Of a stretch of 64,000 nucleotides of DNA, positions 14,704 to 44,930 are shown piece after piece. Source of the stretch: Bacteroidales bacterium (GTDB lineage Bacteria > Bacteroidota > Bacteroidia > Bacteroidales > WCHB1-69); the NCBI GenBank assembly GCA_017616775.1, contig JAFZXM010000052.1, positions 77,282 to 141,281 of the forward strand, read 5' to 3'. The translations under genes and the position numbers were made by a program. Every line of letters starts with the position of its first letter. Positions within the stretch are counted from its first letter, which is position 1. The notes below the pieces were generated by a model that was not told the DNA's origin, did no database searches, and was given only the letters and a program-made list of their open reading frames with translations.

Positions 14704-15489
14704 TTATATGTTTGTATCTTCTGTTTCAAGTTGTAAACCGTCGTATCCCAAACGGCAATAACAGGGTAGGGTAGCAAAGTGGCTGTCTTCTTGTGCGTGC
14801 AGCCCCATATCGTGACTGATATGCGTAAAATAGGTGCGTTTGGGTTTGATTTCATTTACCAGTTGCAAAGCTTCCTCCACATTGAAATGGGAATAATGCT
14901 TTTTTTTGCGTAAAGCATCCAATATCAGGATATCCAATCCGTGAAGTTTGGCCGTTTCTTCAGGGGCTATATAGTTGGCATCGGTAATATAGGCAAAGTT
15001 ATCAATGCGATATCCCAATATAGGCATGTGCATGTGCATTAGTTGTATGGGAATAATGTGTATGCCTTGCACATCAAAAGCATCCTTGCCGATGGTGTGC
15101 AATTTTATTTCAGGCACGCCAGGATAAGGATTGTCGCAAAAGGCATAGGGAAATTCATCGCGTATGCTTTGGCAGGTGGCACTGTTGGCATATACGTCCA
15201 TGACCTGTTTTTGCAGATGATTGAAAGCACGGATGTCGTCAAGCCCGCCTAAATGATCTTTATGCTGATGGGTAAAAAGCAGAAAATCCAAATGCGTAAT
15301 GTGCTCGCGTAACATTTGAGCCCTGAAATCCGGACCCGTATCTATCACAAAAGATTTGCCTTTGTGCTCTATATATACCGACGAACGCAAACGGTGATCT
15401 TTACTGTCGGCAGAACGGCATACCTTGCATTGGCATCCTATAATGGGAACGCCTTGAGATGTGCCGGTGCCAAGTAATATTATTTTCAA
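14704..15489 (-). CDS. MBL-fold metallo-hydrolase (PhnP-like)
   Basis: HQHKDHLGG (HxHxDH) motif and GCQCKVC near the N-terminus. The track ORF (to 15663) runs through its own -7 box. No in-frame ATG follows the box, so I propose TTG 15489 (LKIILLGTGTS). Confidence 0.75.
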   Translation of the reverse strand: MKIILLGTGTSQGVPIIGCQCKVCRSADSKDHRLRSSVYIEHKGKSFVIDTGPDFRAQMLREHITHLDFLLFTHQHKDHLGGLDDIRAFNHLQKQVMDVYANSATCQSIRDEFPYAFCDNPYPGVPEIKLHTIGKDAFDVQGIHIIPIQLMHMHMPILGYRIDNFAYITDANYIAPEETAKLHGLDILILDALRKKKHYSHFNVEEALQLVNEIKPKRTYFTHISHDMGLHAQEDSHFATLPCYCRLGYDGLQLETEDTNI

Positions 15490-15523: not shown

Positions 15524-15652
15524 TCATTTTTTTTTATTAGTGTCCGCCAAACCGGCAGGAATATTGTAATGATAAAAATGTATCCGGAAAGGTATCCCTT
15601 TCCTAATAATGCACATATCACATTGAGAAAGGGAAAATTTGCAAAAAAAATG

Positions 15653-15660
15653 TATCTTTG
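15653..15660 (+). promoter_or_regulatory. -7 promoter box (TATCTTTG) for the decayed Fic-like gene
   Basis: TAnnTTTG 24 nt upstream of ATG 15684. Confidence 0.5.
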
Positions 15661-15683
15661 CAAAATAAATCAAATTCTTTGTC

Positions 15684-16145
15684 ATGGCAAAAACAAAAGA
15701 GATCATTGAAGAACCTTTGGAAAAGCCGCCGACAAGCTGATTTTGGAGAATTTTTGGAGAAGATAAAATTGTAAAGGTTGTGAAAAATAACAAAGATAAT
15801 ACTTCTTATATCAACTTTGACGAATATATCCGTCAGGGAGAGCCGGAAAAGAAGAAACGTGCCGATGCATGGCGCGTAGCCATCGGTTTGCAAGCCGTGG
15901 ACGGGCTGAAAACATCGGCGTATCTTCAAGAATTGGCTCGTCGAAATATTGAGGGCGAGATTACGATTGACGAGGTTAAGACGCTTATTGACCAATACTA
16001 TGCCGAGAAAAAGGTGGGGAGGGTACTACCTGATTTAAGCATCCCAACAAATGCCAAACCAGCACCCGACAAGCCCCGCCATCCCGGACAAAAATATCTG
16101 CTCACCGCCAAAGGAATCAGGTTGTACAACAATATGTTGACATAG
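15684..16145 (+). pseudogene. decayed Fic-family gene retaining only the VbhA-antitoxin-like N-terminal region
   Basis: ATG 15684 opens an 18-codon frame stopped by in-frame TGA 15738-15740. The same frame continues into the track ORF (GTG 15780). YINFDEYIRQGEP..AWRVAIGLQAVDGLKTSAYLQELARRNIEGEITIDEV matches the N-terminal module of Bacteroides Fic proteins. No HxFx(D/E)GNGRxxR core follows. Confidence 0.5.
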
Positions 16146-16149
16146 GTGC

Positions 16150-16201
16150 GGTGCCTTCGGCAGGCACTGAAGGGAAGGTGCCTTCGACAGGCTCAGGCAC
16201 C
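16150..16201. repeat. two GC-rich hairpins built from a 16-nt direct repeat (GGTGCCTTCGrCAGGC) between convergent genes; probable terminators
   Basis: Copies at 16150-16165 and 16177-16192 with 1 mismatch. Stems GTGCC/GGCAC and GGTGCC/GGCACC. Confidence 0.4.
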
Positions 16202-16248
16202 GGTATAAAATTGCGGAGAAAAAGGGTTGATAGGGCAAATTAAATCAT

Positions 16249-17256
16249 TTACTCTTTTTTCTTTTCAAGCATTCCACGTATCTGTTTGTCAAAATCGGAG
16301 TCAATACGCTGTGTTTTGTTGAAAATATCGTACTCGCTCTCTGCCTTGGCTTTGGCATCGGCTGCGGAGATACGCCCTTTGTCGGGCAAAATTCTGTAAT
16401 CGTTGAATGCGAGAAACTTCTCCACACTGGCAGCAAACTGCTCCATAGTGAAGGCATTGTGCAACTCTATCTGATTTTCAATATAGTCAAAATAAGAAGT
16501 AACAGCACGCTCCAGCCGCTTAATTTCATTTTCCGGCAGATAGTTCTTAGCTATTGACACATCACTTTTCAAAATTCGGCCATCAGGAGCATTTTTCCAA
16601 GTGGTCAGTCCCATATTGGCCTTTTGGTGGTCGGCATTGGTATAAATGATTTCTGCAGCTGTTTGCCCTGTGATAGCATAATGGAAACGGTTCTGTATCA
16701 TTGCGTAAAAATCGTGGGTAGAGGGGGCGTTCTTGTCGTAGTCAATGCTGCATTCCGCATAGATATCGGTAATCTGCTGCCAGATACGTCGCTCACTGGC
16801 ACGGATGGAACGCACACGCTCCAACAATTCGCGAAAATAATCTTTTCCAAAAACCGCAGTACCCTGTTTCAAACGTTCGTCATTGAGTACGAATCCCTTC
16901 CGTATATACTCGTTGAGAATCTTTGTAGCCCATATACGGAATTTGGTTGCCCGTGCCGATGACACGCGGTAGCCCACGGCAATGACCGCATCAAGAGAAT
17001 AGAACGTTGTCAAATACTTTTTGCCGTCTGAAGCAGTTGCCGAGATTTTCTCGGTAACTGAATTTTTATCTAATTCATTAGCTGCAAATATGTTTTTAAG
17101 ATGTAGTCCCACGTTGTCTGTTGAACAGCCAAACAATTGTGCCATCGCTTTCTGCGTTGCCCAAATGGTCTCATCTTTGATAACCACCTGCACCTTGCCC
17201 TCCTCCTCGGGCAATTGGTATAATATGAATTGTATTTCGTTCATTGTGCTATCCAC
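16249..17256 (-). CDS. RhuM-family protein
   Basis: 335 aa. IWATQKAMAQLF...DGKKYLTTFYSLDAVIAVGYRVSSARATKFRIWATKILNEYIRKGFVLNDERLK is the RhuM signature region as I know it. Confidence 0.75.
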   Translation of the reverse strand: MDSTMNEIQFILYQLPEEEGKVQVVIKDETIWATQKAMAQLFGCSTDNVGLHLKNIFAANELDKNSVTEKISATASDGKKYLTTFYSLDAVIAVGYRVSSARATKFRIWATKILNEYIRKGFVLNDERLKQGTAVFGKDYFRELLERVRSIRASERRIWQQITDIYAECSIDYDKNAPSTHDFYAMIQNRFHYAITGQTAAEIIYTNADHQKANMGLTTWKNAPDGRILKSDVSIAKNYLPENEIKRLERAVTSYFDYIENQIELHNAFTMEQFAASVEKFLAFNDYRILPDKGRISAADAKAKAESEYDIFNKTQRIDSDFDKQIRGMLEKKKE

Positions 17257-17407
17257 TATATTTGTTTTTACGTTTTTTTTGTTTCTATTCCTTCTTTCCT
17301 GCCTTCGAACTTCTTATTACATGCTGCTTTATTACTTCTATAAGCGGAGAAAAATGATTGTCGGGGCAAGTGTAATCTTATCTATTGATACAGTTTATCA
17401 CAATATG

Positions 17408-18337
17408 TCAATCCAAGGATTCAGGTTCGTCATTTTTGTCTGTGTTTTCACGTATTGTTGGATTCGATGCTAAAATATAATTACTATTGCATATATAACC
17501 TTCTTGCTCATAGCCTCGATGAAAACGGTGAATAGTTGAAATGAGATTTAAGACTCTTTCGTCTTCTACAGTCATATTCCTATAATGAGATAGTTGTGAG
17601 TTGTATAAATCAATGTTCCCATTGGAAATACGTTCTTCGTAATCTTTTGGTATAAATAACGAAGCTCGCTCTCCTAAATGTCGATAAAACTCATTCTGGT
17701 AGATGGCGACTCCTGCCAAATCCAAATCACCGAAATGAACATATCTGTTGGGAATAGACAAGAGCCATTTTAATAGATCTTTGCTCTGGTTTTGCGGATA
17801 GCGGGTTACGAACAGGACCTTTCTATATTCATTAAAAAGATATTTTTGACGAGCAATATGGCGAAAGTTCTCAGCATTTTCTACGCCAATAACCACGACA
17901 TCTTCGGATATGTGGAAATGCTGATAGTCAGCAATGAACATGAAAGTGCCATCTGGAGGAAGTATTGTCAGTTGTTTCCCGTCTAAAACAGCATAAATGG
18001 GCTGATAACTGTTCACTAAGAATCCTGCAAACGAGCGGTGTAACAGAAACTTACTGTCACCTGTAACTTCCACCTGTGAGGCTCTGTCAACACTCCCATC
18101 AGTAAGTAGTTCATGTGTTTGTTCCAAATTGCGGATGTCGTATTGGCCAGCCAGATAGTTGCGGAAGGTTGAGGTGTCTGACACACGAAGGCTCTTATGA
18201 CTGCCGCGTGTAATACCTAACAAGATGCCGTCTGTCTGCATCTGCTCAAACCAATCTCCCTTCAGGCTGCTGGCAGGCAAAGTCTCGCCATTAGCTAAAC
18301 GAATCAGTTTTTCTATGAGTGCAGCAGTTTTTTTCAT
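17408..18337 (-). CDS. jetD: JetD/MksG-like Toprim-domain protein (putative nuclease subunit of the SMC operon)
   Basis: 309 aa. Toprim-like acidic motifs VIGVENAENF and HFGDLDLAGVAIY. ATGA start/stop overlap with the upstream ATPase gene. Confidence 0.6.
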   Translation of the reverse strand: MKKTAALIEKLIRLANGETLPASSLKGDWFEQMQTDGILLGITRGSHKSLRVSDTSTFRNYLAGQYDIRNLEQTHELLTDGSVDRASQVEVTGDSKFLLHRSFAGFLVNSYQPIYAVLDGKQLTILPPDGTFMFIADYQHFHISEDVVVIGVENAENFRHIARQKYLFNEYRKVLFVTRYPQNQSKDLLKWLLSIPNRYVHFGDLDLAGVAIYQNEFYRHLGERASLFIPKDYEERISNGNIDLYNSQLSHYRNMTVEDERVLNLISTIHRFHRGYEQEGYICNSNYILASNPTIRENTDKNDEPESLD

Positions 18338-21300
18338 CTTATAGTCAGTAAAGTTTTAACAATGGTATTACTTTTCTCGTCTTTGCTGAGAGAGTAGGTG
18401 TATTTGTATGCCAACGCATTATAGGTCGTCGGAGATGAGTTGATTAGGAAAATGTTACGTTTGCTCGCGAAATCAAGAATTCCTTCCACGTTCTTGGGAT
18501 GCAATTTACCAATCTCATCCATCATACAATGGAGTTTGAAGTCGCCGAACTTACGGGATATTTTGGATTTGAATACATTGATGAGCATAATATTCACCAT
18601 TGCCTTCACCAAAATATCAGTGCCGTCAGAGCCTACATTTGAGAGTTTCTCTACCCAACTGGTGTCGTTATCGTTCTCCTTCACCTTAAACTCCAGTTTG
18701 AAGGTGTCTGCCAAAGTGATATTCTCTCGCTTTTGCTCAGCATCCATCATATCTATGAGTGTCATCAACAAATTTACGGCTTGTTCATTAGTGCGATTCA
18801 AGTCTTTTTCTGTCGTGAAGAGGTTCAGGTTTCCGATATCATATCCGTGTTCATCATCAAAGTGCTTGATGTTTAACAGTTGCTGCATCAGCCTGTCGTT
18901 GCTCTCCACGGCACGTAGTTCTATCTCCTTGATAACTCCGACAAAATTGTTCTCTCTGAAGTCACGATTAATGTCAAGAATTGTCTTTTCGATGTCAGAT
19001 TTATGCTGGCTTAGATCACTAACATCCTTTGCAATCCGTTTAATGATGGTAGCATACTGACGACTGGTACGAACACGATACTGCTCAATCTTGTTGTTGC
19101 TTATAAATTCATTAAGTTCTGCGGCAAAATCCGTATAGTCCGCATCAGTGTTGAATTCTGTACGGAAATGGAAGGTGTTTTGTGCTGAGAAATTGCCCTT
19201 GAATCGGACGACTGCCTGTTTGAAATCCTCAAATTTTTGTTGCTGGGTGCTAATTCGGTCACGAAGTTCTTCCAGAATGTCAGCAAGCGGTTTAACAGTT
19301 TCTATGTCCTTTGCTGAAAGCAACTCTGGCGGACAAGTGGGGTTGCCCATAAAAGCATGAACCTTGCTGATGGCATCATTCAGCTTCTTTTGTTCGTCTT
19401 GCAGTTTGCGTAATTCAGTTGAAAGCACACCGATTTTCTCGTCATATTGCTGCTTTCGTTTTTGGAATTTATCTTGTAGTTCATCTATCTTTTGGCGAAT
19501 GAGTTTACGTTCATCCTTTTTCTTCTGTTCCAGATTGAAATACTCGCGTGTGTCGTTCTGCCATGAAATAAAGTTGGGACGATGTTCTTCTATGTATTTC
19601 AGTTCATCAGTTACTTTTTGTAGTTGTTGGCGGATGATAGCCAATTGATTGACATCTACGCCAAGTCCTTTTAGTTCAGCATCCATCTGTGCCTGCAATT
19701 CACCTTTTTGTTGTGCAACATCTTGTTCTTTACTTTTCAGCTCAGCATTAATATCCGATTTTTGTTGGTCACATGTATCCTTTAACTCTTTCTTCTGTTT
19801 TTCAAAAGATTTACGATTGTTCTCCAACTCTTTGTCTCGCTGGTCTGTAAAGAGTTTTCCCTGATTGCTAATGGCCTCGATTTCTTTATCTGTCTCTCCA
19901 ATCCTCTTTTGAAGCTTCTCGAGTTCCTCATTACGCCATTTCTTCAAACTTTCCATAGAATCAAATTGCTTCTTCTGAAGCAGTTCTATTCGACGAGGTA
20001 TTTGATTGTATTCTGCATCGACAGTCATCTTCTCCATGCGGAGTTGTTTTAGGCTCGCACCCGGCTTCCGCTCCAACCCTGCAATGTCGGCTTCCAACTG
20101 CTGTTTCCTGAGAGTATTTTTTTTGTTCAGTTCGTCAATTTTCCGTTCCATCGAAACTTTCTGAGCTTTCAGTTCATCAGGTGTCTTGATGATCTTCTCA
20201 ATGTTGTCGGTCTCAATCTTAACACCATAAATGCTGTTGGATGGACCAACAAACTGAGGATTCAATGAAGTATTATAGAGTACGGCATCTTCATCAAGCA
20301 CACGTCCAATATTCTCTTCCCAGCCATTCACATTCTCGCCCAACCATTCTATGAGAGAGCCCTTTTGGCGACTGAGCATATCTGTAACCTTTTCTATTTC
20401 GGTATTGATTTGCTTTATTTCATTCTCAATGGCTGCGACATCTTTCTCACATGCCACTTCCAATTCTTTACGCTGCATACCAACTTCATTGACAATATGG
20501 TCAATCTCCTGCTGCTTGCTAGAAGACTCCTGAAATAGCTTCAACTTTTTGTCATTCAACTCCTTCAACTTCCGCTCTTGTTCATCCATCTCATCTTGGT
20601 AAGGATTTGACTGCTTCACCCTCTGCTGCTGAAGTTTAAGGTCACTCTTTGTCTGACGAGCATCGTCTAATTGGGTCTGATTTTCTTTTAGCTTCTGATC
20701 ATATTGTCCACGAACAACTTCTGTTAGTTCTGTCATTTCTGTTTGCAGACGATTTTGCGCCTGCAAAAGTTGGCTATCCAATTCGTTGATACGTTGTTGG
20801 CATTGTAACTTGTATGCCTGTAGTTGATTCTCAACATCCTGTATTAATGTGTCATATTTAGACTTGACACTCTGGTTCTTGTCCGTCAGCGTATCTTCCT
20901 GATGCAACAGAGTTTGCTGTTGTATTTTAAGTTCACCTTCTCTACCAATACGCTCTGCAATTCTTTCTATTCCGATTTCTGCATAGTGCTGACGCTTATC
21001 TTTGACCTTCTTCAAGAAGTCATCTATGATAGCTTCATTACCCTTCAATCCGTCACGCTCTTTTGTAAACTTGTCGTTTTCTTCTTCCAATAGTCTATTC
21101 TGTCGGGATAAATCCTGACTACAGTCTGTTTCTTGCTCTGCTAACTGTGGCAAAAGGTTTGTATCTCGTTCCAATGCGTAATTCAACTGACCACAAAGTT
21201 CTGAGATTAGTTTACGGACATACTCATAATCAGTGTATTTCTCAATAACAGCTTCCGCATCAGTCTTTACTTTTACTTTGCCGTTCTTCTCTACCTTGTA

Positions 21301-21993
21301 CCATTTCCAAATATCTTCATACTGCTGACGGAAATTCTTTACCTCTTCACGGTAACGATTCAGGTCAATGTCGTCGCTCGCGAAGTCCATTGAGTCAATG
21401 ATAGTGTCTTTGATTACGCGAGACTCCAAGCTTTGGTTCAGGAAGATATTCTGAATAGTCAATGGCACCTGGCGGTATTTTGTACTCTCCATCAATGAGA
21501 AACGGCGAAATTCTTTTGCCACCTGTTGACTGTTGCCATAGATAATATCACGAAACTCCTCATAGCCACGAATGATATTGCTTTTGAACACGCGAGTGCC
21601 TATCTGCTCGCTAATGCGTCCCCATTCATATCGTACACTTCTGTCTTCCTCGACAAAGAACTTTTTGTCGTACGCACAGTCAACAATACGGAAGGCTGTA
21701 CGCCCATGTGAGAGGAAGGTCATCACAAAAAACTTGCCAGTCTCACGGCATACTTCGTAAATGATGTAAGAGTTCTGGTGAGGCAGATAGAACTCATCGT
21801 AACTCTTCTGTCCAGCTTGAGTCTTAATGCCAAGTTTGTTCTTATCGACATTATAGAAGAATAAAATTGAACGGAGCAGAGTTGATTTACCAACGCCCTG
21901 CGTTCCAATAAAATGCACATTGCCATCAAGTTTTATCTCTGCGTATGGAACGTGTGCACTATTGATGAATATGATTTTATTGAGGTATCTCAT
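18334..21993 (-). CDS. jetC: SMC/JetC-like ATPase with long coiled coil
   Basis: 1219 aa. Walker A GTQGVGKST (aa 30-38), about 700 aa of E/K/Q/L-rich coiled-coil-like sequence, C-terminal Walker B-like LHCMMDE. Confidence 0.7.
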   Translation of the reverse strand: MRYLNKIIFINSAHVPYAEIKLDGNVHFIGTQGVGKSTLLRSILFFYNVDKNKLGIKTQAGQKSYDEFYLPHQNSYIIYEVCRETGKFFVMTFLSHGRTAFRIVDCAYDKKFFVEEDRSVRYEWGRISEQIGTRVFKSNIIRGYEEFRDIIYGNSQQVAKEFRRFSLMESTKYRQVPLTIQNIFLNQSLESRVIKDTIIDSMDFASDDIDLNRYREEVKNFRQQYEDIWKWYKVEKNGKVKVKTDAEAVIEKYTDYEYVRKLISELCGQLNYALERDTNLLPQLAEQETDCSQDLSRQNRLLEEENDKFTKERDGLKGNEAIIDDFLKKVKDKRQHYAEIGIERIAERIGREGELKIQQQTLLHQEDTLTDKNQSVKSKYDTLIQDVENQLQAYKLQCQQRINELDSQLLQAQNRLQTEMTELTEVVRGQYDQKLKENQTQLDDARQTKSDLKLQQQRVKQSNPYQDEMDEQERKLKELNDKKLKLFQESSSKQQEIDHIVNEVGMQRKELEVACEKDVAAIENEIKQINTEIEKVTDMLSRQKGSLIEWLGENVNGWEENIGRVLDEDAVLYNTSLNPQFVGPSNSIYGVKIETDNIEKIIKTPDELKAQKVSMERKIDELNKKNTLRKQQLEADIAGLERKPGASLKQLRMEKMTVDAEYNQIPRRIELLQKKQFDSMESLKKWRNEELEKLQKRIGETDKEIEAISNQGKLFTDQRDKELENNRKSFEKQKKELKDTCDQQKSDINAELKSKEQDVAQQKGELQAQMDAELKGLGVDVNQLAIIRQQLQKVTDELKYIEEHRPNFISWQNDTREYFNLEQKKKDERKLIRQKIDELQDKFQKRKQQYDEKIGVLSTELRKLQDEQKKLNDAISKVHAFMGNPTCPPELLSAKDIETVKPLADILEELRDRISTQQQKFEDFKQAVVRFKGNFSAQNTFHFRTEFNTDADYTDFAAELNEFISNNKIEQYRVRTSRQYATIIKRIAKDVSDLSQHKSDIEKTILDINRDFRENNFVGVIKEIELRAVESNDRLMQQLLNIKHFDDEHGYDIGNLNLFTTEKDLNRTNEQAVNLLMTLIDMMDAEQKRENITLADTFKLEFKVKENDNDTSWVEKLSNVGSDGTDILVKAMVNIMLINVFKSKISRKFGDFKLHCMMDEIGKLHPKNVEGILDFASKRNIFLINSSPTTYNALAYKYTYSLSKDEKSNTIVKTLLTIR

Positions 21994-22528
21994 CTTTCAC
22001 GTCTTCGTCTATGTTAATACAAAGTATAATCTGCTCGATGTAATGAAAAGCATTGGTAACCTGATACGTGCTGTCAACCTCATTCACCATCTCCGCAAAC
22101 CCCATATTTTCTAACGCATCTGCCAACGCCTCCAGCTTTTGGCGATTCGACGGTTTGTCTGGAAACATCTGGGACAGTTTCTCTTTTAAACCTGGTATTG
22201 TGGAAAGCTTCACTTCCATCTGAACCAAACTAAACTGAGTTCCTGCATCAAAAGCCGTGTCGTATGTCTTCAGGAAGTCAAGATAGTCAATCCAAGAAAA
22301 CAACGATTGCAACTTGTTTTCTGTTGTCACCTTCGCTTCCTTGCGGCTGAAGTAGTAGAATCCGTCGCCACTACATAGTTGGAAGTCTATCTGACTGAAA
22401 TAGTCTTCATACTCCTGTTGGTTCTCTTCTATATCATTATAAATGGCACGCGTATCCGCATCAATGCTGTTACTCGATATAAATTGTCCCCGACTGAGGC
22501 GTTGGAATATTTCGCTTGTATATTTCAT
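21977..22528 (-). CDS. small acidic subunit in the JetB/MukE (KITE) position
   Basis: 183 aa, acidic. Overlaps neighbours by 17 nt downstream and by ATGA upstream. Assignment rests on size and position only. Confidence 0.4.
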   Translation of the reverse strand: MKYTSEIFQRLSRGQFISSNSIDADTRAIYNDIEENQQEYEDYFSQIDFQLCSGDGFYYFSRKEAKVTTENKLQSLFSWIDYLDFLKTYDTAFDAGTQFSLVQMEVKLSTIPGLKEKLSQMFPDKPSNRQKLEALADALENMGFAEMVNEVDSTYQVTNAFHYIEQIILCINIDEDVKDEIPQ

Positions 22529-23718
22529 AGTGGGTATATAATAGGATATTCTATGTTGTTCATTGTCTTCATCTCGTCTGTATAGTGCAATTGGTCTGGA
22601 TATTGTGATGCCATTTGTAGAAAGAGCACCAGACGCAATTCTTTGTCAAGCAAGTCAGTAAACGAATAGTTCCATACGTAGTAGAACAAATCGCGACTTT
22701 GAGCCAAGAAACCATTCAGCAATTCTTGATGGTTGAAAGCTCGAGCCGTTTCTGTTTGTTCCTCTAGGTAGTTGGAATCTATCCTCTCGGCCAGTCTCGA
22801 CTTGATGTTGGCTTTCTTTGACAGACGCCGTCTGATGTTGTCAAGAATATCAAGCGCAGTGTCCTCATTACGAAGGAAATCAAGAGAGACACGTGTGATG
22901 TACTTTGGCTGACGTTCCATCCAGACATCGTTTGTTTGTGTAACGATTTCCTTAATATTGGTTGTTTGCTCAATCATGTACTGATCGTGCAAATATTTCA
23001 ACTGGCGAACACGTTTCACTAAACGACTTTGGTATTCAATACGGTTTAAATAATCAATAATTTGGGCTGATACAGCAATAAGGCCGTGTGCCGAATCTTT
23101 CAAACTGTCACGTACTTCGCTTACGGTTTGTTTAAGACTATAATTCGCTGCACTCGCAAAGAAGATATGTTGTTCGTCTATAACACGTTCAGTCTGCCTT
23201 ATTAGTTCTGCTATCAGTTGCCCTTTTTCATCAAAATCTTTAAGACGAAGTTCCTTAATCTTGAAATTAGGTTCCTGCTTATAGGTGTCATCAACATTCC
23301 TTTTCAAATCCATCACATTTCTGCGAGTGGTATTCTCAATGCTCTTGAATGTGTGACGTATTTCTCTGAGAAATCCTTCTCTGCGAATATTGTTCTCAGC
23401 CGCCAGATAAGAATCAATACCAAGTTTCAGTTTATCAATATATGTCTTGACAGAAGAAATATTGATATCTTCGTTTACGGCCAGAACTTCCTCAAAGAAT
23501 CGTTGATATGCATCGTCCAGTTCCAATGCTTCCCCAGATTGCACAATCACTCCGAAAGTTATCAAATGCTTTAGTTTGTTCTCGTCTCCCTCCAATGTTT
23601 CGAGAGCATCATCATACTTTACGGCAACTGTCTTGCGTTTCATAAACATATCGTTCAGCAGTTTTGTGCCCTGCTGAAGTCCACGAATCAGTTCTTTTAT
23701 TGAATGATATGTCGCCAT
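22525..23718 (-). CDS. helical subunit in the JetA/MukF (kleisin) position
   Basis: 397 aa and first gene of the coupled operon. Assignment rests on size, position and composition only. Confidence 0.4.
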   Translation of the reverse strand: MATYHSIKELIRGLQQGTKLLNDMFMKRKTVAVKYDDALETLEGDENKLKHLITFGVIVQSGEALELDDAYQRFFEEVLAVNEDINISSVKTYIDKLKLGIDSYLAAENNIRREGFLREIRHTFKSIENTTRRNVMDLKRNVDDTYKQEPNFKIKELRLKDFDEKGQLIAELIRQTERVIDEQHIFFASAANYSLKQTVSEVRDSLKDSAHGLIAVSAQIIDYLNRIEYQSRLVKRVRQLKYLHDQYMIEQTTNIKEIVTQTNDVWMERQPKYITRVSLDFLRNEDTALDILDNIRRRLSKKANIKSRLAERIDSNYLEEQTETARAFNHQELLNGFLAQSRDLFYYVWNYSFTDLLDKELRLVLFLQMASQYPDQLHYTDEMKTMNNIEYPIIYPL

Positions 23719-23883
23719 GTTTAATTTATTTAGTACTTATACGTCGCCGTGGTGTTGCTTAAAATTCCTGAAAGTGCGGAAATCGGAAGTTTGCTATTCT
23801 AAGAAAGTGATATGTCTTTTCTTTATTATTCCATTTAAATTCAATAATTTTTATTCTATTAGAAAAATCATGGTATTTATAAT

Positions 23884-24147
23884 TTGCAAAAATAATAAAA
23901 TTATCCTACATTTCTATCGTTTTTGCAAATTATTTTTTTAGATGCAGAATGAATATGTGTATAAAAAGTTATCGGTGCATTTGGCTTGTTCTGATTATTC
24001 AGATGTTTATGAGATTTTTGCTTATTTTGTTTGTCTTGGTTCATAAGATGTTTTATTTTGCATAAGATACTAAAACCCATTGAAATATCAATGGATTAAG
24101 GCAATATTTTTTTAACAAAAAAGATGTGAAAGAATAAAAAATGCAGG
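23884..24147 (-). repeat. island intergenic repeat, copy A (upstream of the SMC operon)
   Basis: About 95% identical by eye to copy B over about 225 bp. Contains inverted repeat TTGCAAAAA/TTTTTGCAA (23884-23928), -7 box TATTTTTG (23887-23894, minus), a degenerate second box (TATCTTATG), hairpin CCATTGA-aata-TCAATGG (24077-24094), and ends at ATGCAGG (24141-24147). Confidence 0.85.
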
Positions 24148-24185
24148 AAGAGGATATAAAGTTTGTATTTACTTAATTCCAAGTG

Positions 24186-25265
24186 CTATTCTTGGTTTAG
24201 TTTTGTCTCAATCTCTTCAATGGTAGGAATAGTGCCTTCCACTTTTGCGGGATAGAATTTTTCCAACTCATACTCAGATATGCCAATAGGCTGGCTGCTT
24301 GACTCCAAAGCATATTGAGCCTGTGTGTTGTCTTTGCTTCGGCAAATGAGCAGTCCTATGGTGGGGTTGTCCTTGCCTTCTTCACGCAGTTGATGGTTGA
24401 CAGCGACCACATATGAACCAATCTGTCCTATGTCAGCAGGAGTAAACTTGCCGATTTTTACTTCAATGACGACATAACAGCGGAGACGCAAATTATAGAA
24501 TAGCAGGTCGATGAAGTTTTCGGTATGCCCAATCTGTAGTCGGTACTCTCTGCCTACGTATGCAAATCCGGTACCCAATTCAACCAAGAAGTCGGTGATG
24601 TTTTTGAGCAGTGCCATTTTCAACTCTGCCTCGTTATGCTGTTTGGCAACACCGGCAAATGCAAAGTTGTAGGGGTCTTTGGTCAGTTCTTGCGCCAAGT
24701 CGCTTGAGGTGTTGGGTATGGTGGTGGCAAAGTTGGTAATAGACTTCCCGGAACGTTCATACATTCCTATATCAATCCAGTTAAGCAAAAGTGCGCGGCT
24801 CCAGCCGTTTTCTATGGTTTGACCTACATAGAACAACGCCTTGTTCACATCGCCTTTCACCTTGTCGAGGATAAGTTTATGATGGCCCCAAGGTACCATG
24901 AATATAGGCGACTGGTTTTGCTTCGGCAGGTCGGGCAATAATTTGCCCCCAGCTTGGGGGCAAAATTCAACCGCCTCGGAATAAAGGAGGTAGAACCGAC
25001 GGCAATATCTTAAATTGGTTGACGAGAGGCCTTCTGCAGTGGGCATCGCTTTTTTCAAATCTTTACTGAGTTGGTTAATGACACTTTCTCCCCAGCGGTC
25101 TTCCACATGCATTTCTACGATGTCACGCCCAAGTAGGAAGTTATAGATCAATTGCTCGGTGTTGACTTTAACTGCGGCTCTGACTTGGCACAGCCGATAA
25201 CGGTCAATCAAGGTTTCCACCCACTGCTGGTATTCTTTATCCATGATGGTTATTGCCTTACTCAT
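24186..25265 (-). CDS. DUF1016/YhcG-family PD-(D/E)XK nuclease
   Basis: 359 aa. N-terminal YQQWVETLIDRYRLCQVRAAVKVN region and C-terminal FIDLLFYNLRLRCYVVIEVKIGKF (D...E-x-K core), typical of YhcG-like proteins. Confidence 0.75.
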   Translation of the reverse strand: MSKAITIMDKEYQQWVETLIDRYRLCQVRAAVKVNTEQLIYNFLLGRDIVEMHVEDRWGESVINQLSKDLKKAMPTAEGLSSTNLRYCRRFYLLYSEAVEFCPQAGGKLLPDLPKQNQSPIFMVPWGHHKLILDKVKGDVNKALFYVGQTIENGWSRALLLNWIDIGMYERSGKSITNFATTIPNTSSDLAQELTKDPYNFAFAGVAKQHNEAELKMALLKNITDFLVELGTGFAYVGREYRLQIGHTENFIDLLFYNLRLRCYVVIEVKIGKFTPADIGQIGSYVVAVNHQLREEGKDNPTIGLLICRSKDNTQAQYALESSSQPIGISEYELEKFYPAKVEGTIPTIEEIETKLNQE

Positions 25266-25416
25266 AATCTCTGTTTCTTTGTGTTAATTACTCAATCCCA
25301 TGCCAATGCCCAAAATGCTTTCTTACGCATCCATTGCGATTCTTTCTCTCTTCGTATAAGGGCTTTCGTCACACTTTGGATTGAAATCCGATTTTCCATA
25401 ACGTTCAAATTTGTGG

Positions 25417-25424
25417 CAAAAATA
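25417..25424 (-). promoter_or_regulatory. -7 box (TATTTTTG, minus) inside repeat B, proximal
   Basis: The forward-strand sequence CAAAAATA is the reverse complement of TATTTTTG. It lies about 150 nt upstream of ATG 25265 and forms the left arm of the inverted repeat. Confidence 0.4.
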
Positions 25425-25591
25425 GTAAAATTATCCTGCATTTCTATCATTTTTTGCCAATTATTTTTTTAGATGCAGAATGAATATATGTATAAAAAGT
25501 TATCGGTGCGTTTGGCTTGTTCTGATTATTCAGATGTTTATGAGATTTTTGCTTATTTTGTTTGTCTTGGTTCATAAGATGTTTTATTTTG

Positions 25592-25599
25592 CAAAGATA
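25592..25599 (-). promoter_or_regulatory. -7 box (TATCTTTG, minus) inside repeat B, distal
   Basis: The forward-strand sequence CAAAGATA is the reverse complement of TATCTTTG. It lies immediately downstream (minus sense) of the 7-bp-stem hairpin. The equivalent box is intact in copies C and D and mutated in A. Confidence 0.5.
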
Positions 25600-25663
25600 C
25601 TAAAACCCATTGAAATATCAATGGATTAAGGTAATATTTTTTTTCAACAAAGCGGGTGGGGAG

Positions 25664-25726
25664 AAAAAATGCAGGGAGGGGGCGGTGGGTGGTCGCTCCG
25701 ATATGTTCGATAAAGGGTGGTATTAA
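25664..25726 (-). repeat. C-rich 3' cassette module, copy after Fic-1
   Basis: Minus strand reads TACCACCCTTTATCGAACATATCGGAGCGACCACCCACCGCCCCCTCCCTGCATTTTTT directly after the stop codon. Related copies lie at 27113-27170 and 27360-27405. Confidence 0.7.
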
Positions 25727-27013
25727 TTATTCCTCTTGCTTTTTAATATATCCACGAGTTACCTTGTTGATGGCAATCTCTGTCAAATAACCTTGTTGCA
25801 CCAAATCGGAGAGGTCTTTCCTTGCCGTCATGGAAGAAACAGAGAACTGCTCCTGTACATCTTTTACGGTTAAAATAGTGTCTGGTTCTTCTGTCAATCT
25901 TTGCAATACCAATGCCTGCCGCTGGTTGATGTTTCCTGTCATCATAAAGACGGCGGCAGCTTTTTTCTCCCGTTGCTTCCGCTGGATATAGTCGCGGAGT
26001 TGCTGGAAAGAAATTTCCAACGCTCTCAAATTGTATGCCACAAAATATCCCATGTCGTTGCCGTCATTTTCTGTATAGCGGAACGATTTCTCATAACTGA
26101 TTTTTGATTTCGCAATTACCCTTGATATGGACATGTATTCCATGAGTTTGTAGTTCTCTTTCAGCATATACCAATAGAAAAGAGCACGGGCCGTCCGACC
26201 ATTGCCATCCGCAAAGGGGTGCATATAAGCCACCATAAAATGAATGATGATGCCTTTGATAATGGGATGAATAAAGGTACGTGGGTTATCATTATTGAAA
26301 AAGTCACATAAAGTTGTTACAAATTCCGGAATCTCCTCAAAGGCAGGCGGAGTATGAACAATATCCCCTTCAATCATATTGGCTACAACCACGTTGTTGT
26401 TTGTCCTGAAACAACCGGCGTCTTCAGGATTGTCCAATGTCTTTTCTGTCATCAGTCTGTGAATATACAGCAACCCTTCCTCCGTCAAGGGGACATTCTT
26501 ATGTTCTACAATATATTGGATAGTCGTATAGTTGTTTACAATCATCTGCTGTGCCTTGTTTTGAGGTGTTTTTTTTTTCCTCAGCATTTCTTTAGCAACA
26601 ATGCGGGTGGTGGAAGCACCCTCCATTTTGCTGGAATAGATAGCCTCTTCCATCAAGGAACTTGACAGATAATATTTTTTTTCGGAACTTTGTGAATTGT
26701 TACCGGCTTCCCAGAAACTTCCGAACTTCATATCAAAGTCATGGCAAAGACGTTGCATTTTGTTGGTGACAAATAGTTTAATTCCATATTTGTTCCAAAC
26801 ATTCAGTCTGTCTTGCTGACGAGAGGCTTTAACGTATGTCCACAATATCTTAGGACTGACGCCTTTGGGAAGATGATTCTTGTATTTAACCTTATCCCAA
26901 TATTCATAATCATCGTTTATTTGATTAATAATCGGATAAATGCGTTCATCTACACTACCCATGATGTACTTCAAATAAGCGTCATCATTTATTTTTGGCG
27001 GATATTCTATCAT
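25727..27013 (-). CDS. Fic-family protein, class II (N-terminal inhibitory helix) with C-terminal winged-helix domain
   Basis: 428 aa. Fic core HPFADGNGRTARAL, upstream inhibitory-type motif SSKMEG ((S/T)xxxE(G/N)), C-terminal ..QALVLQRLTEEPDTILTVKDVQEQFSVSSMTARKDLSDLVQQGYL (wHTH-like). Confidence 0.85.
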   Translation of the reverse strand: MIEYPPKINDDAYLKYIMGSVDERIYPIINQINDDYEYWDKVKYKNHLPKGVSPKILWTYVKASRQQDRLNVWNKYGIKLFVTNKMQRLCHDFDMKFGSFWEAGNNSQSSEKKYYLSSSLMEEAIYSSKMEGASTTRIVAKEMLRKKKTPQNKAQQMIVNNYTTIQYIVEHKNVPLTEEGLLYIHRLMTEKTLDNPEDAGCFRTNNNVVVANMIEGDIVHTPPAFEEIPEFVTTLCDFFNNDNPRTFIHPIIKGIIIHFMVAYMHPFADGNGRTARALFYWYMLKENYKLMEYMSISRVIAKSKISYEKSFRYTENDGNDMGYFVAYNLRALEISFQQLRDYIQRKQREKKAAAVFMMTGNINQRQALVLQRLTEEPDTILTVKDVQEQFSVSSMTARKDLSDLVQQGYLTEIAINKVTRGYIKKQEE

Positions 27014-27039
27014 TGTTTTATCTTTTATTTTTCAAACGG

Positions 27040-27047
27040 CAAAGGTA
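27040..27047 (-). promoter_or_regulatory. -7 box (TACCTTTG, minus) for Fic-1
   Basis: The forward-strand sequence CAAAGGTA is the reverse complement of TACCTTTG. It lies 27 nt upstream of ATG 27013. Confidence 0.55.
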
Positions 27048-27060
27048 CAATAAAAAAATT

Positions 27061-27107
27061 AAATTCTTGCAAATTCTTGCAAATTTTTGCAAAAGTTGCA
27101 AGAATTT
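27061..27107. promoter_or_regulatory. operator-like array: four TTGCAA hexamers at about 10-bp phasing, including a perfect 12-bp inverted repeat
   Basis: TTGCAA at 27067, 27077, 27087 and 27096. AAATTCTTGCAA (27071-27082) and TTGCAAGAATTT (27096-27107) are exact reverse complements. The array sits over the -35-equivalent region of the Fic-1 promoter. Confidence 0.5.
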
Positions 27108-27112
27108 TTCTC

Positions 27113-27170
27113 AAAAAAAGCAGGGTGAGGGCGGAGGTGCCGCTTTGAAATGTTCGCTTAAAGGGTGGTA
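27113..27170 (-). repeat. C-rich 3' cassette module, orphan copy (no gene upstream of it)
   Basis: AAAAAAAGCAGGGTGAGGGCGGAGGTGCCGCTTTGAAATGTTCGCTTAAAGGGTGGTA aligns with 25664-25722. Confidence 0.6.
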
Positions 27171-27190
27171 ATGTCCATGCTGAGAAAGAA

Positions 27191-27372
27191 AAGTTATCGG
27201 TTCGTTTGCTTCTCGTTAATTAGTTAGCATTTTCTGGACTTTTTGTTTATTTTGATTAGTTTGGTTCAAAAGATGGTTTTATTTTGCAAAAATACTAAAA
27301 ACCATTAAAATATCAATGGATTAAGGCAATATTTTTTTACAAAAAAGATGTGAAAGAATAAAAAATGCAGGA
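27191..27372 (-). repeat. island intergenic repeat, copy C (diverged left part, conserved right part)
   Basis: Begins AAGTTATCGG as in A and B. -7 box at 27287-27294, hairpin with 1 mismatch at 27302-27319, ends at ATGCAGG 27365-27371. Lacks the inverted-repeat segment of A and B. Confidence 0.75.
27287..27294 (-). promoter_or_regulatory. -7 box (TATTTTTG, minus) inside repeat C
   Basis: The forward-strand sequence CAAAAATA is the reverse complement of TATTTTTG. It occupies the same position as the distal box of copy B. Confidence 0.4.
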
Positions 27373-27405
27373 GGGGGGGGAGGAATTCTCAGATATGTTC
27401 GCCTG
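27360..27405 (-). repeat. C-rich 3' cassette module, copy after Fic-2
   Basis: AAAAAATGCAGGAGGGGGGGGAGGAATTCTCAGATATGTTCGCC. It shares ATGCAGG, the G-run and GATATGTTCG with 25664-25710. Confidence 0.55.
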
Positions 27406-27427
27406 AATGTTTATCGTCTTTCACCGA

Positions 27428-28303
27428 TCAATCCTCTTGTTCATAATAGTATGAATAGTCGATGCCTTTCATAAAGATTGCACGGTCGTCAGTGCGGTCG
27501 GTAAGGGCACCGAGAAGCAGTTCCCGTATTTTAGTACTGTCCGTATGACTTGCTATCATGGCATCAAGGTATTCTTTCTTGTCAATTTTGCTCCAATCCA
27601 CACATTTCTTCAGCCGTTTTTTGAAAATGAGGTCAAGCCAGATACGCGTAGAGCGTCCGTTGCCTTCCATAAAGGGATGCGCCGCGTTCATCTCCACATA
27701 TTTGTCCACAATCTCATCAAACGTGGTTTCCGGCATCTTTTCAATTGTCCTGAGGTTTTGGGGCAGATATTCGGCCATGCAAAACAGGGTGTTGCCCTTG
27801 GCTATGGTCTTTGTGCGAATTTTTCCCGCGAAATCATACAAACCGCCAAAGAGATATGCGTGAATTTGTTGCAAGGCTTTCACCTTGCCCACATCCTTGT
27901 CAGCTACAAGTTTGCTTTCCCAAAGGGTATAAGCCTTCTTGCGGCTTTGTCCGTCAATGGTGTTCTCGCTGTATTTAAACCAGTCAAGAAAAGCCATAGC
28001 CTGGCTGTTGGGAATGGCTTTTGCCAATTGTTCCACACCTGCCAGACTGATGACATCGGTGTTGTACTTCTTTCCGTCTGCAGCCGTGAGTTTCAGTTGG
28101 GTAGTGGCACTAACCAACTCGTTTTGTTCTTTCTTCAGTTTGGCCTTGAGATACTTCCAGTAGTTACGGTTCTTCACATGGTTGTCCTGCTCATTGACGG
28201 CTCCTATAACATCAAGTACGGAAAACCACCATTGGTTGAGGTCCTCATCCCATACGGCACGCACTACATGATTTTTATAAAAACGAATGGATATCTTGCT
28301 CAT
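27428..28303 (-). CDS. Bro-N-like DNA-binding domain fused to a Fic domain (class III-like C-terminal helix)
   Basis: N-terminus IRFYKNHVVRAVWDEDLNQWWFSVLDVIGAV (Bro-N pattern). Fic core HPFMEGNGRSTRIW. C-terminus GIDYSYYYEQED is near the (S/T)xxxE(G/N) motif. Start could also be ATG 28324 or TTG 28354 (the track start). Confidence 0.8.
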   Translation of the reverse strand: MSKISIRFYKNHVVRAVWDEDLNQWWFSVLDVIGAVNEQDNHVKNRNYWKYLKAKLKKEQNELVSATTQLKLTAADGKKYNTDVISLAGVEQLAKAIPNSQAMAFLDWFKYSENTIDGQSRKKAYTLWESKLVADKDVGKVKALQQIHAYLFGGLYDFAGKIRTKTIAKGNTLFCMAEYLPQNLRTIEKMPETTFDEIVDKYVEMNAAHPFMEGNGRSTRIWLDLIFKKRLKKCVDWSKIDKKEYLDAMIASHTDSTKIRELLLGALTDRTDDRAIFMKGIDYSYYYEQED

Positions 28304-28410
28304 AATTTGTACCCGACTTTTCATTTTTTTACAATCCGTTCCCCAATTTCTCAAACTATTCTTTCAGCTTCTGCCAGCTATACTCCAAACGGACACCACT
28401 GAATTATAAA

Positions 28411-28465
28411 TGCAAAAATACTAAAAACCATTGAAATATCAATGGATTAAGGCAATATTTTTTTA
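28411..28465 (-). repeat. island intergenic repeat, copy D (promoter-proximal part only)
   Basis: TGCAAAAATACTAAAAACCATTGAAATATCAATGGATTAAGGCAATATTTTTTT matches the right part of A-C. Hairpin at 28428-28445. Confidence 0.8.
28413..28420 (-). promoter_or_regulatory. -7 box (TATTTTTG, minus) for Fic-2
   Basis: The forward-strand sequence CAAAAATA is the reverse complement of TATTTTTG. It lies inside repeat D, about 90-110 nt upstream of the candidate ATG starts. Confidence 0.5.
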
Positions 28466-28497
28466 ATAAAAAAGGCGTAACCTCATGGTTACGCCTT
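28466..28497 (-). terminator. rho-independent terminator of dnaK
   Basis: AAGGCGTAACC-tcat-GGTTACGCCTT followed on the minus strand by a T run. It directly abuts repeat D. Confidence 0.8.
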
Positions 28498-28619
28498 ATT
28501 ACTTATGGATAAATTGTTATTTATCCGGTTTATTTCGGTATTTGCTTTGCCAATTCCGCAATAAATCCTCACCTCGGCAGTGCTCAAACCTTTCGGTTTG
28601 GAATGCGCTCGGTTCGTCG

Positions 28620-41986: not shown

Positions 41987-42068
41987 GCGGGTGTGGCGTA
42001 ATTGGTAGCCGCGCTAGACTTAGGATCTAGTGCCGAAAGGCGTAGGAGTTCGAGTCTCCTCACCCGCA
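41987..42068 (+). tRNA. tRNA-Leu (anticodon UAG)
   Basis: Hand-folded. Acceptor GCGGGTG/CACCCGC, D-loop with GG, anticodon stem CTAGA/TCTAG with loop CTTAGGA, long variable arm GCC-gaaa-GGC, T-arm AGGAG-TTCGAGT-CTCCT, discriminator A. CCA is not encoded. Confidence 0.88.
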
Positions 42069-42070
42069 CG

Positions 42071-42115: not shown

Positions 42116-42706
42116 ATGAAGTGGAAAGTGTTTGACAATATGGAGCAATGCTCTGTTGCGGAAGTGCAGCGTTTGTTGCGGCGCGTGTCGGCGCAAAGAG
42201 CTGAAAAAGCCATGGCGTACAAACGTTTGCCCAATCAATATGCGTGTTTGAAAGCATATGAGCTGTTGCATGATATGTTAGAGGAGCAAGGGGTGATATC
42301 CCGTAATGAGCCGTTGGTTTTTGAATTGTCGGAACACGGCAAACCCCATATCAGCCGCTATCCTGATGTGCATTTTAATATCAGCCATTGCAAATACGGG
42401 ATAATAGTGGCGGTAGATACGGCTCCTGTCGGTGTGGATGTGGAAAGATTATATCTTCCCGATGACGCTTTTTTGCATTATACCATGAATGAAGAAGAAA
42501 TAAGGCAAATACGTTCGGCGGCGCATCCGGCTCAGGCCTTTTCATTGTTGTGGACCAGAAAGGAGGCATATGTGAAAATGAAAGGGGAGAGCATAGGCAG
42601 GGATATTCCTCAAATATTAAACGGTTTTGGCAGGCATCCCTATTCCGTCACTTCTTGGGTGAATGAGGAAAAACAATATGCATGCACTGTTATTTCCATG
42701 CAATAG
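42116..42706 (+). CDS. 4'-phosphopantetheinyl transferase (Sfp type)
   Basis: 196 aa. GKPHIS..FNISHC, VGVDVE and WTRKEAYVKMKG motifs. Confidence 0.75.
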   Translation: MKWKVFDNMEQCSVAEVQRLLRRVSAQRAEKAMAYKRLPNQYACLKAYELLHDMLEEQGVISRNEPLVFELSEHGKPHISRYPDVHFNISHCKYGIIVAVDTAPVGVDVERLYLPDDAFLHYTMNEEEIRQIRSAAHPAQAFSLLWTRKEAYVKMKGESIGRDIPQILNGFGRHPYSVTSWVNEEKQYACTVISMQ

Positions 42707-42821
42707 CGCAGATAGTTTCCTGGCAGCGGGTGCTATCCGTGCAGTGCGTCATCAGTGCGGCTCCGGAAAGTTTGAATCAAGCTAAAAAAGTATCCGCCGG
42801 AGCGGATATTGAAAAAAATAT

Positions 42822-42829
42822 TATCTTTG
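42822..42829 (+). promoter_or_regulatory. -7 box (TATCTTTG)
   Basis: TAnnTTTG 25 nt upstream of ATG 42854. Confidence 0.55.
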
Positions 42830-42853
42830 CATTTTATACCAAAAATATTTCAA

Positions 42854-44916: not shown

Positions 44917-44930
44917 GTATAATCCATTGT

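Follow-up and report, generated by a model that had tools for sequence, protein, structure and literature searches.

A probable composite defence island downstream of dnaK in an uncultured Bacteroidales lineage, with a very divergent candidate SMC-nuclease operon of the Wadjet group

The Wadjet systems of types I-III (JetABCD), equivalent to MksBEFG and EptABCD, combine a kleisin, a KITE subunit, a structural maintenance of chromosomes (SMC) ATPase and a Toprim nuclease encoded by overlapping, co-directional genes. The group is sequence-diverse, with versions that contain and versions that lack the nuclease MksG/JetD (PMC7617805), and for MksG a winged-helix plus Toprim architecture, as in the A subunit of topoisomerase VI (Topo VI-A), has been reported (PMC10123090). 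The operon table of the former survey lists a B-E-F-G gene order in Psychrobacter and Acinetobacter, with subunit sizes closely similar to those of the operon described below, and Bacteroidales entries that differ from it in size, such as that of Phocaeicola vulgatus with 482/194/1133/388 aa (PMC7617805). Here we analyze a 64,000-nucleotide stretch of a Bacteroidales contig (JAFZXM010000052.1, positions 77,282 to 141,281; hereafter the window), in which a cluster of about 12.9 kb of anti-phage and anti-plasmid genes lies directly downstream of dnaK in an uncultured gut or rumen bacterium. We consider it probable that this cluster is a composite defence island, no longer self-mobile, made of independent modules and a four-gene system of the Wadjet group at a variable site 3' of dnaK. 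Such an island is ordinary as a kind; what is noteworthy is the operon, which in our reading specifies an uncharacterised and very divergent subtype of Wadjet-group SMC-nuclease system, and secondarily an apparently native palindrome repeated at the module junctions.

Gene content was established from a mechanical list of open reading frames (ORFs) and the PADLOC, Pfam and NCBIfam hidden Markov model (HMM) libraries. The operon (17408-23718) comprises four overlapping, co-directional genes on the minus strand, whose products of 397, 183, 1219 and 309 aa follow the A-B-C-D order of JetABCD:

22525..23718, minus strand: operon gene 1, a 397-aa all-helical protein in the kleisin (JetA/MksF) position; no family match
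21977..22528, minus strand: JetB/MksE-type KITE subunit, 183 aa; full-length match to PF21980 (MksE) at 1.9e-40, with weak JetB1/DUF4194 similarity
18334..21993, minus strand: JetC/MksB-type SMC ATPase, 1219 aa; PF12128 (DUF3584) at 2.1e-67 over residues 18-1195
17408..18337, minus strand: Toprim nuclease candidate in the JetD/MksG position, 309 aa; DUF7281 at 27.2 bits, reaching the threshold

Several features unite this operon with the Wadjet group. Besides the gene order and the location in a defence island, the SMC protein matches DUF3584, the domain named in the description of the PADLOC JetC1 model, and it is accompanied by an MksE/JetB-like subunit. The SMC protein displays a Walker A motif (GTQGVGKS) at residue 30 and, as read by eye, a Walker B-like CMMDE near the C-terminus; a regular-expression scan of the protein for Walker B and the signature motif returned nothing. 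The nuclease candidate gives a weak match to PADLOC JetD1 over its Toprim core (residues 137-214, 7.8e-7), and the elements of its E...DxD signature, GVENAENF (E153) and HFGDLDLAG (D204, D206), are invariant in 38 homologues that are 64-83% identical to the window protein. Tyr61 and Arg59 of this protein are likewise invariant. An alignment-based AlphaFold (AF2) model of this protein, with a predicted local distance difference test (pLDDT) score of 76, has Topo VI-A and Spo11 as its only significant structural neighbours (E ~1e-5, probability 1.0), with template modelling (TM) scores of 0.34-0.39 and most of the length aligned. JetD, like MksG, is of winged-helix plus Toprim architecture.

Other features set the operon apart from the described types. 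Its nuclease belongs to the Pfam family DUF7281, not to DUF2220/DUF3322, and is compact, typically about 283 aa (309 aa in the window) as against the 346-409 positions of the PADLOC JetD models; no paper naming DUF7281 was found in the literature searched. As homology to the relatives stops near 17492, the last ~26 residues of the window nuclease are a local extension. Similarity to the Jet models is marginal and partial throughout, and the 397-aa protein matches no JetA or MksF model. For this first subunit, a kleisin role is suggested by position, size and helical content. The single sequence found no match in Pfam, PADLOC, NCBIfam or the PDB, 76 diverse relatives yielded no Pfam or PADLOC match and no kleisin or JetA link, and the profile built from them found nothing in the PDB. 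Sequence and profile searches of the PDB with all four operon proteins likewise gave nothing meaningful. The family of the 397-aa protein numbers 765 homologues and 416 clusters at 50% identity, and its gene always stands first in the operon. A published survey retained only MksF proteins of at least 400 aa, so that a protein of 397 aa would drop out of it (PMC7617805).

By analogy with JetABCD/MksBEFG, a dimer of the DUF3584 SMC together with the MksE-type KITE subunit and the presumed 397-aa kleisin would form a DNA-loop-extruding ring. Such a ring might recognise small circular DNA and then license the Topo VI-A-like Toprim subunit of the DUF7281 family to cut it, by which the system would restrict plasmids.

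At least three further chromosomal contexts in Bacteroidales contain the operon in a 397/183/1219/283-aa form, with a DNA identity of 74-83%. The homology sets in at the first start codon (23718-23729) and breaks off at about 17492-17553, with the last stop codon, and the operon is a discrete 6.2 kb module that moves among Bacteroidales and has a patchy distribution. In one context, beside pheT/yebC, a DUF3427 PLD-helicase stands before the operon, with NUDIX and Schlafen/AlbA_2 ATPase genes after it. At the loci L168-L175 (for example L168, 15382-16658) a NUDIX gene encoding 142 aa overlaps that of the DUF7281 nuclease, with the Schlafen/AlbA_2 ATPase next, and in some proteins of ~410 aa the NUDIX and DUF7281 regions are fused; the NUDIX protein may represent a fifth component of such operons. 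In a second context (L188/L190) a RhuM gene directly follows the operon, as it does in the window, its product being 48% identical and bearing an extra N-terminal domain. In a third (L192/L193) the operon stands alone among metabolic genes. The recurrence of RhuM or NUDIX directly downstream, the latter sometimes joined to the nuclease in one polypeptide, is a further difference from the described Wadjet types.

More distant relatives of the SMC protein are found in Bacteroidota 'plasmid' records. Parabacteroides distasonis encodes a nuclease-free relative of three genes, 33% identical and specifying 395/189/1209 aa (L177, 6200-11630). It lies among rpmA, gcvT, glnA and dapF, and the record, 'plasmid 9' (NZ_OY725754.1), resembles a chromosome fragment filed as a plasmid. 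In proteobacteria, a plasmid operon of Polaromonas JS666 combines a DUF3584 SMC (1e-253), proteins of ~224 and ~407 aa and a DUF7281 protein (6e-14), and the alignment of its 224-aa protein to the MksE-like protein of the window covers the full length (E 2e-6). Similarly sized SMC-first operons occur on Vibrio campbellii and Enterobacter plasmids, in the latter as Tn7-like cargo. The Enterobacter version, on the IncC plasmid pVIM-Exn692 (L178, 137928-144830), stands beside a Tn7-like tnsD and a WYL gene, and its SMC gene is broken by an IS256-family element. The Polaromonas operon shares with that of the window a DUF3584 SMC and a DUF7281 protein of ~270-290 aa, with companions of ~210-225 and ~400 aa. 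The proteobacterial operons differ from it in that, like the B-E-F-G operons of PMC7617805 Data S1, they begin with the SMC gene, whereas the window operon begins with the gene in the kleisin position; the SMC proteins are only ~21-22% identical and the ~400-aa proteins barely alignable. Comparison of the window proteins with single Polaromonas homologues by hhalign gave signals that were too weak (E 0.05 for the ~400-aa proteins). The Polaromonas and Vibrio operon proteins went unrecognised by PADLOC, save for one weak JetB1 match in Vibrio.

The remainder of the cluster consists of single-gene units:

15560..28410 (approximate), no strand: island-specific DNA, with five intact defence modules and one remnant
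15780..16145, plus strand: truncated Fic-family gene, 121 aa, N-terminal inhibitory-helix part; PADLOC PDC-S72 at 5.9e-26
16249..17256, minus strand: RhuM-family protein, PADLOC candidate PDC-S05; PF13310 at 8.8e-104, PDC-S05 at 4.7e-151 over the full length
24186..25265, minus strand: YhcG/DUF1016 PD-(D/E)XK nuclease, PADLOC candidate PDC-S02; PF06250 at 2e-57, PF17761 at 9e-29, PDC-S02 at 8.9e-147
25727..27013, minus strand: Fic AMP-transferase with a C-terminal DeoR-type winged helix-turn-helix (wHTH), SoFic-like architecture; PADLOC SoFic at 2.2e-45
27428..28303, minus strand: Bro-N plus NmFic-like Fic protein, PADLOC candidate PDC-S04; PDC-S04 at 4.6e-154, motif HPFMEGNGR

Nine ORFs lie between a gene for a metallo-beta-lactamase (MBL)-fold hydrolase on the left and the dnaK terminator on the right, and eight of them match defence, toxin or Wadjet-group families. 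The NCBI records label the window proteins as hypothetical ('MAG: Bacteroidales bacterium', MAG being a metagenome-assembled genome; locus tags J5701_07320 and J5701_07335). A preceding sequence-only reading had proposed an accessory defence island here, and its gene inventory, coordinates and placement of everything except the Fic remnant on the minus strand are reproduced by the ORF list and the HMM libraries. The defence-family matches that it anticipated are strong for the five single-gene units (PDC-S72, PDC-S05, PDC-S02, PDC-S04 and SoFic), and its SMC-ATPase plus Toprim operon contains the families named, which are here refined to a divergent system of the Wadjet/MksBEFG group.

Of the 377 positions of the PDC-S72 model, the leftmost unit covers only 5-72, and in a motif scan it lacks HxFx(D/E)GNGR; this partial match and the missing Fic catalytic motif identify it as a truncated Fic gene. 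Its score against VbhA (21.6 bits) is under the cutoff. The two full-length Fic proteins both retain an intact Fic motif and presumably act as toxins or abortive-infection effectors. The Fic-wHTH protein covers positions 22-350 of the 361-position SoFic model, combines the Pfam Fic and HTH_DeoR domains and has its catalytic motif, HPFADGNGR, at residue 265; it resembles SoFic in this core motif and the C-terminal wHTH, but at 57 bits it does not reach the cutoff of the NCBIfam SoFic equivalog (550). The core of the Bro-N protein, in contrast, passes the NCBIfam cutoff for NmFic, a class III Fic protein (254 bits against 230), from which it differs by the additional N-terminal Bro-N domain. The ORF of the latter protein extends to 28354, the called start being M18, and a 291-aa product is called in contig L001.

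The genes on either side of the island provide the basis for comparing synteny:

14704..15489, minus strand: left flank, core MBL-fold hydrolase, 261 aa, TTG start; NCBIfam PRK02113 at 1.6e-88
28472..28497, minus strand: dnaK intrinsic terminator hairpin, 11-bp stem with T-run
28620..30524, minus strand: right flank, dnaK; HSP70 Pfam match on the identical product

On the left side, the MBL protein was scanned against one genome per GTDB species, and its closest relatives belong to uncultured Bacteroidales MAGs (UBA1205, 88% identity; JAZLLK01, 76%; UBA1215, 72%). In UBA1205 and JAZLLK01 (L003/L004) the DNA on the far side of the MBL gene, with PspC, aminotransferase, TonB receptor and ligase genes, is collinear with 8.4-15.5 kb of the window, and homology towards the island ends in the MBL promoter region, which sets the left limit of island-specific DNA. 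Upstream of the MBL gene, these two nearest species are collinear with 42785-52679 of the window, and both the island and dnaK are absent there. In these species the MBL gene and the gene at 42809 are thus not separated by the segment of 15.5-42.8 kb (15490-42790), which in the window comprises the island, the dnaK-enolase-PGM block, a tRNA-Leu gene and a 196-aa ORF (42116-42706) read by eye as a phosphopantetheinyl transferase. It follows that the MBL gene and dnaK are not ancestral neighbours, and comparison of these sequences indicates a lineage-specific rearrangement. A mobile insertion of the whole segment at the tRNA-Leu gene was rejected, as dnaK, enolase, folP and other core genes of this sort are part of it.

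On the right side, the dnaK closest to that of the window (94% identity) comes from the MAG that also contains the 76% MBL locus, and the block upstream of it is retained (enolase ... folP, glycosyltransferase, dnaK). The site 3' of dnaK in this sister species contains a different island, with an AlpA-type helix-turn-helix protein, AbiH, a tyrosine integrase, an N6/N4 methyltransferase, RE_MjaI, a reverse transcriptase and DUF3987 (L180, 12120-20364; GCA_045598105.1, JAZLLK010000047.1); the methyltransferase is associated with an SNase domain. More distant species display a Lon protease gene (91% dnaK identity; L185/186), a convergent 694-aa gene (89%; L181-184) and Kdp genes (85%; L187) at this position. 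Four related species with four different contents mark the dnaK 3' flank as a variable position, and the two closest lineages hold different defence cargo there, as at the defence-island hotspots in which one conserved position carries different genes in sister species. The cluster accordingly unites several unrelated defence families within 12.9 kb with variable content at a conserved position among relatives, and it is located at a hotspot that is also a rearrangement junction, rather than being a simple insertion between adjacent core genes. It was probably built by successive acquisitions at the dnaK-3' site, and a genome rearrangement would later have joined it to the MBL gene.

A 62-nt imperfect palindrome, which we designate E (repeat family D2), occurs in four direct copies, each of them intergenic at a module boundary:

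28411..28472, minus strand: E1, directly after the dnaK terminator; -33 TTG / -7 TAttTTTG
27285..27346, minus strand: E2, between the Bro-Fic and Fic-wHTH genes
25590..25651, minus strand: E3, between the Fic-wHTH and YhcG genes, within 237 nt that recur with 95% identity in the E4 region
24060..24121, minus strand: E4, between the YhcG gene and the four-gene operon

Its perfect core palindrome, CCATTGATATTTCAATGG, is confined to the island within the 64 kb, where none is expected by chance, and the core of E includes CCATTGAnnnnTCAATGG plus flanks. On the gene strand E reads TTG, 19 nt, TAttTTTG, with the palindrome spanning the -33 to -15 region; the spacing and boxes match the Bacteroidetes -33/-7 promoter consensus (TAnnTTTG). 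Its predicted fold is an extended hairpin with a T-run behind it, and E could be a promoter/operator, a weak terminator or a recombination site. E2-E4 lie 65-82 nt past the stop codon of the upstream gene and have longer flanking homology in common, and E1 shares the core alone with the other copies. In the island-free species with the 89%-identical dnaK (L181/L182), a sequence related to E1 follows the dnaK terminator with a local alignment score of 48, against 18.9 +/- 2.9 in shuffled controls (0/500 shuffles reach 48). Since 28411-28472 is matched in an island-free species, island-specific DNA starts near 28410. The alignment with the integrase-bearing island of the sister species does not include the left half of E. 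From these sequence comparisons E1 appears to be native to the locus and to have been multiplied as the modules joined, and the copies could derive from site-specific insertion, from homologous recombination of shared regulatory DNA or from promoter duplication. A structured leader RNA was rejected as an interpretation, as the repeated leader fold is no more stable than its shuffles. An Rfam search over the island detected no significant family, the sole match being a sub-threshold one to MicX (21 bits where the gathering score is 75; E 0.55), which overlaps the dnaK terminator.

Compositionally, the distinction between the island and its surroundings is concentrated in the operon. Measured against the rest of the window, the strand-symmetrised tetranucleotide distance is 29-33 over 17-24 kb, as against 10-16.5 away from the island, and it is only 17-18 over the Fic/YhcG part; the biased amino-acid composition of the coiled coil that the SMC gene encodes may account for some of the peak. 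The anticipated tetranucleotide difference is therefore present at about twice the background over 16-25 kb, the SMC operon, and not elsewhere in the island. The impression that the island is AT-richer holds in direction (40.6% GC as against 42.4% in the rest of the window) but is marginal, as the 3-kb windows average 40.4% inside and 42.3 +/- 1.9% outside, a difference of about one standard deviation. The dnaK terminator hairpin proposed by the sequence-only reading is found at 28472-28497, and the proposed lack of a spacer at this edge has to be qualified: E1 directly abuts the terminator, and these first 55-60 nt are matched in an island-free species. Likewise, the island does lie between the MBL gene and dnaK, but it is not wedged between formerly adjacent genes, and it is lacking or different in related species, but every same-species contig found carries the parts of it that it reaches. 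The collinearity in all close relatives that would contradict accessory status is not seen, given that the MBL gene of relatives adjoins homologues of 42785-52679 and that the four dnaK-bearing species differ, and the alternative of no compositional difference and no HMM hits fails as well; the interpretation as an accessory defence island hence stands.

Several results weigh against assigning the operon to Wadjet, and an alternative has to be considered in which it encodes a chromosome-organising condensin of the MksBEF type, accompanied by a topoisomerase-like accessory subunit. The operon escapes the curated models for Wadjet types I-III, its MksE-like protein scores 24 bits against the NCBIfam MksE model (cutoff 400), its PADLOC Jet matches (weak JetD1, JetC1 and JetB1) are all partial with E-values of 1e-3 to 1e-6, and the PADLOC and NCBIfam scores of its proteins are far under the level at which Wadjet is called. 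Gene 1 has no detectable kleisin similarity and its single-sequence AF2 model is unusable (pLDDT 36), and the 50 best structural matches of the nuclease model include neither a JetD nor an MksG chain. The Pfam families MksE and DUF3584 are condensin-type, and the operon shares with MksBEF/MukBEF the MksE family and the SMC superfamily, and relatives of its SMC occur in a three-gene form without a nuclease among housekeeping genes, as in P. distasonis; the L192/L193 operons among metabolic genes and the Topo VI-A resemblance of the nuclease point in the same direction. In Shewanella, a DUF3584 SMC-like protein that is co-fit with two hypothetical proteins is needed for cisplatin resistance, a chromosome or repair phenotype (10.1101/072470). 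Set against this are the additional Toprim nuclease gene, which is a mark of the plasmid-restricting Wadjet-group forms (PMC7617805), the patchy distribution of the operon as a precise, mobile 6.2 kb module in unrelated sites, and the defence genes that flank it in several genomes, in view of which we regard a housekeeping condensin as improbable and favor a divergent Wadjet-group system.

The island itself also admits of other interpretations. A chance run of unrelated genes would account for the absence of mobility genes and for a GC content only 1.8 points below that of the rest of the window, but it is hardly credible given the family membership of eight of the nine ORFs, the shared junction repeats and the break in synteny in all relatives. 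PDC-S02, S04, S05 and S72 are PADLOC-DB candidates and not validated defence systems, which also tells against the island, and a defence activity of these genes is to be regarded as presumptive. It is possible, if rather doubtful, that the block is left over from old acquisitions and has become fixed in the species, rather than varying at present between strains. In its favor, contigs from four or five independent samples (L001, L002, L164, L165 and L166; 99.5-100% identical) carry every island part that they reach, no strain lacking the island was found among them, there are no mobility genes and the GC content is near the host value; these contigs, however, are few and near-clonal, the nearest species have no such block, another island occupies this site in the sister species, and micro-variation is seen in the form of an indel in the RhuM gene of L166 and a duplication at the 3' end of dnaK in L002. 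Accessory status therefore holds between species only. We consider unlikely, in turn, a cassette array assembled by site-specific recombination at att-like E elements, in which each insertion duplicates E through a recombinase that works in trans or is no longer present. The four direct copies exactly at the junctions and nowhere else in the 64 kb, the 1.1-1.7 kb single-gene units between them, the extended hairpin, the orthologue of the dnaK-proximal copy in an island-free species and the tyrosine integrase at the same site in the sister species, where half of E is missing from the alignment, are all consistent with it, and direct palindromic repeats at each module junction recall integron cassettes and Xer/dif modules. 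On the other hand, no recombinase, integron integrase or recognisable dif site is present in or near the island, no attC-type site was recognised, though E was not compared against an attC model, and E also fits a promoter with a palindromic operator or a weak terminator; regulatory duplication or homologous recombination would account for the copies equally well. The homology of E2-E4 is, moreover, far longer than a core att site needs, E is absent from the viral contigs searched and from all other fetched loci, and no polymorphism in cassette number was seen. We thus retain a composite defence island at the dnaK-3' hotspot. A bolder joint proposition, that the operon is an unrecognised Wadjet subtype, widespread among gut and rumen Bacteroidales, kin to the proteobacterial DUF3584/DUF7281 operons and marked by a compact Topo VI-A/Spo11-like nuclease, an unrecognisable kleisin and recurrent RhuM or NUDIX partners acting together with it, and that E is in addition a recombination site at which single-gene cassettes accumulate in the absence of a resident integrase, is offered as tentative and less likely than not.

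The nuclease family comprises ~780 clusters at 90% identity, and the SMC-nuclease system is abundant in gut and rumen Bacteroidales without being called by current defence-finding models. As these models miss it, the capacity for plasmid restriction in Bacteroidales, and with it the barriers to gene transfer and genetic tools, are probably under-counted. Its compact DUF7281 nuclease and unrecognisable presumed kleisin offer a minimal, divergent comparison for the coupling of loop extrusion to cleavage in Wadjet, and the dnaK 3' flank with the apparently native E at its junctions is a tractable case for the assembly of a defence island that has no integrase.

The claim that integrase, transposase and border tRNA genes are missing was confirmed. 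No integrase or transposase domain is found in the precomputed Pfam gene tables of the identical contig across 3.2-40.5 kb of the window (ENA contig ERZ27256916 k141_3557029, 100% identical), and the sole tRNA of the window, the tRNA-Leu at 41987-42069, is 13.5 kb from the island. Islands of the integrase/tRNA type are thereby not resembled, the only repeats being the internal copies of E. A near-identity search of the island against plasmid and phage collections yielded no match.

The MBL gene, previously placed with its start at 15663, begins at the TTG at 15489, as the PRK02113 alignment to the long ORF sets in only at its residue 59 and four public contigs list precisely the 261-aa product. 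The precomputed Pfam annotation of this hydrolase lists PF23023 (Anti-Pycsar Apyc1) besides Lactamase_B_2; with 308 relatives across Bacteroidota, the protein probably represents a cellular branch of the Apyc1 fold. Between it and the Fic remnant, a short ORF (MAKTKEIIEEPLEKPPTS) is present at 15686-15742 on the plus strand. In a shifted frame this segment reads AADKL, five residues that faintly resemble an HsdM N-terminus and may be a type I restriction-modification relic, an idea that was set aside.

The RhuM gene of sample L166 (992-1140; window ~16729-16747) has an in-frame insertion or duplication of ~130-150 nt, giving 354 instead of 335 aa. A 34-nt direct repeat, 76% identical, is found just 3' of the RhuM stop codon (16213-16246) and just 3' of that of the JetD-like gene (17344-17377), enclosing a 1131-bp RhuM unit; it could mark a cassette boundary or be due to chance. 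At the opposite edge of the island, L002 (11969-11992, against window 28535-28641) shows a tandem duplication of ~85-107 nt across the dnaK stop codon in another strain. A 655-aa DnaK variant (99% identical, 8 member sequences) is consistent with such a duplication, which is a length polymorphism at the edge of the hotspot.

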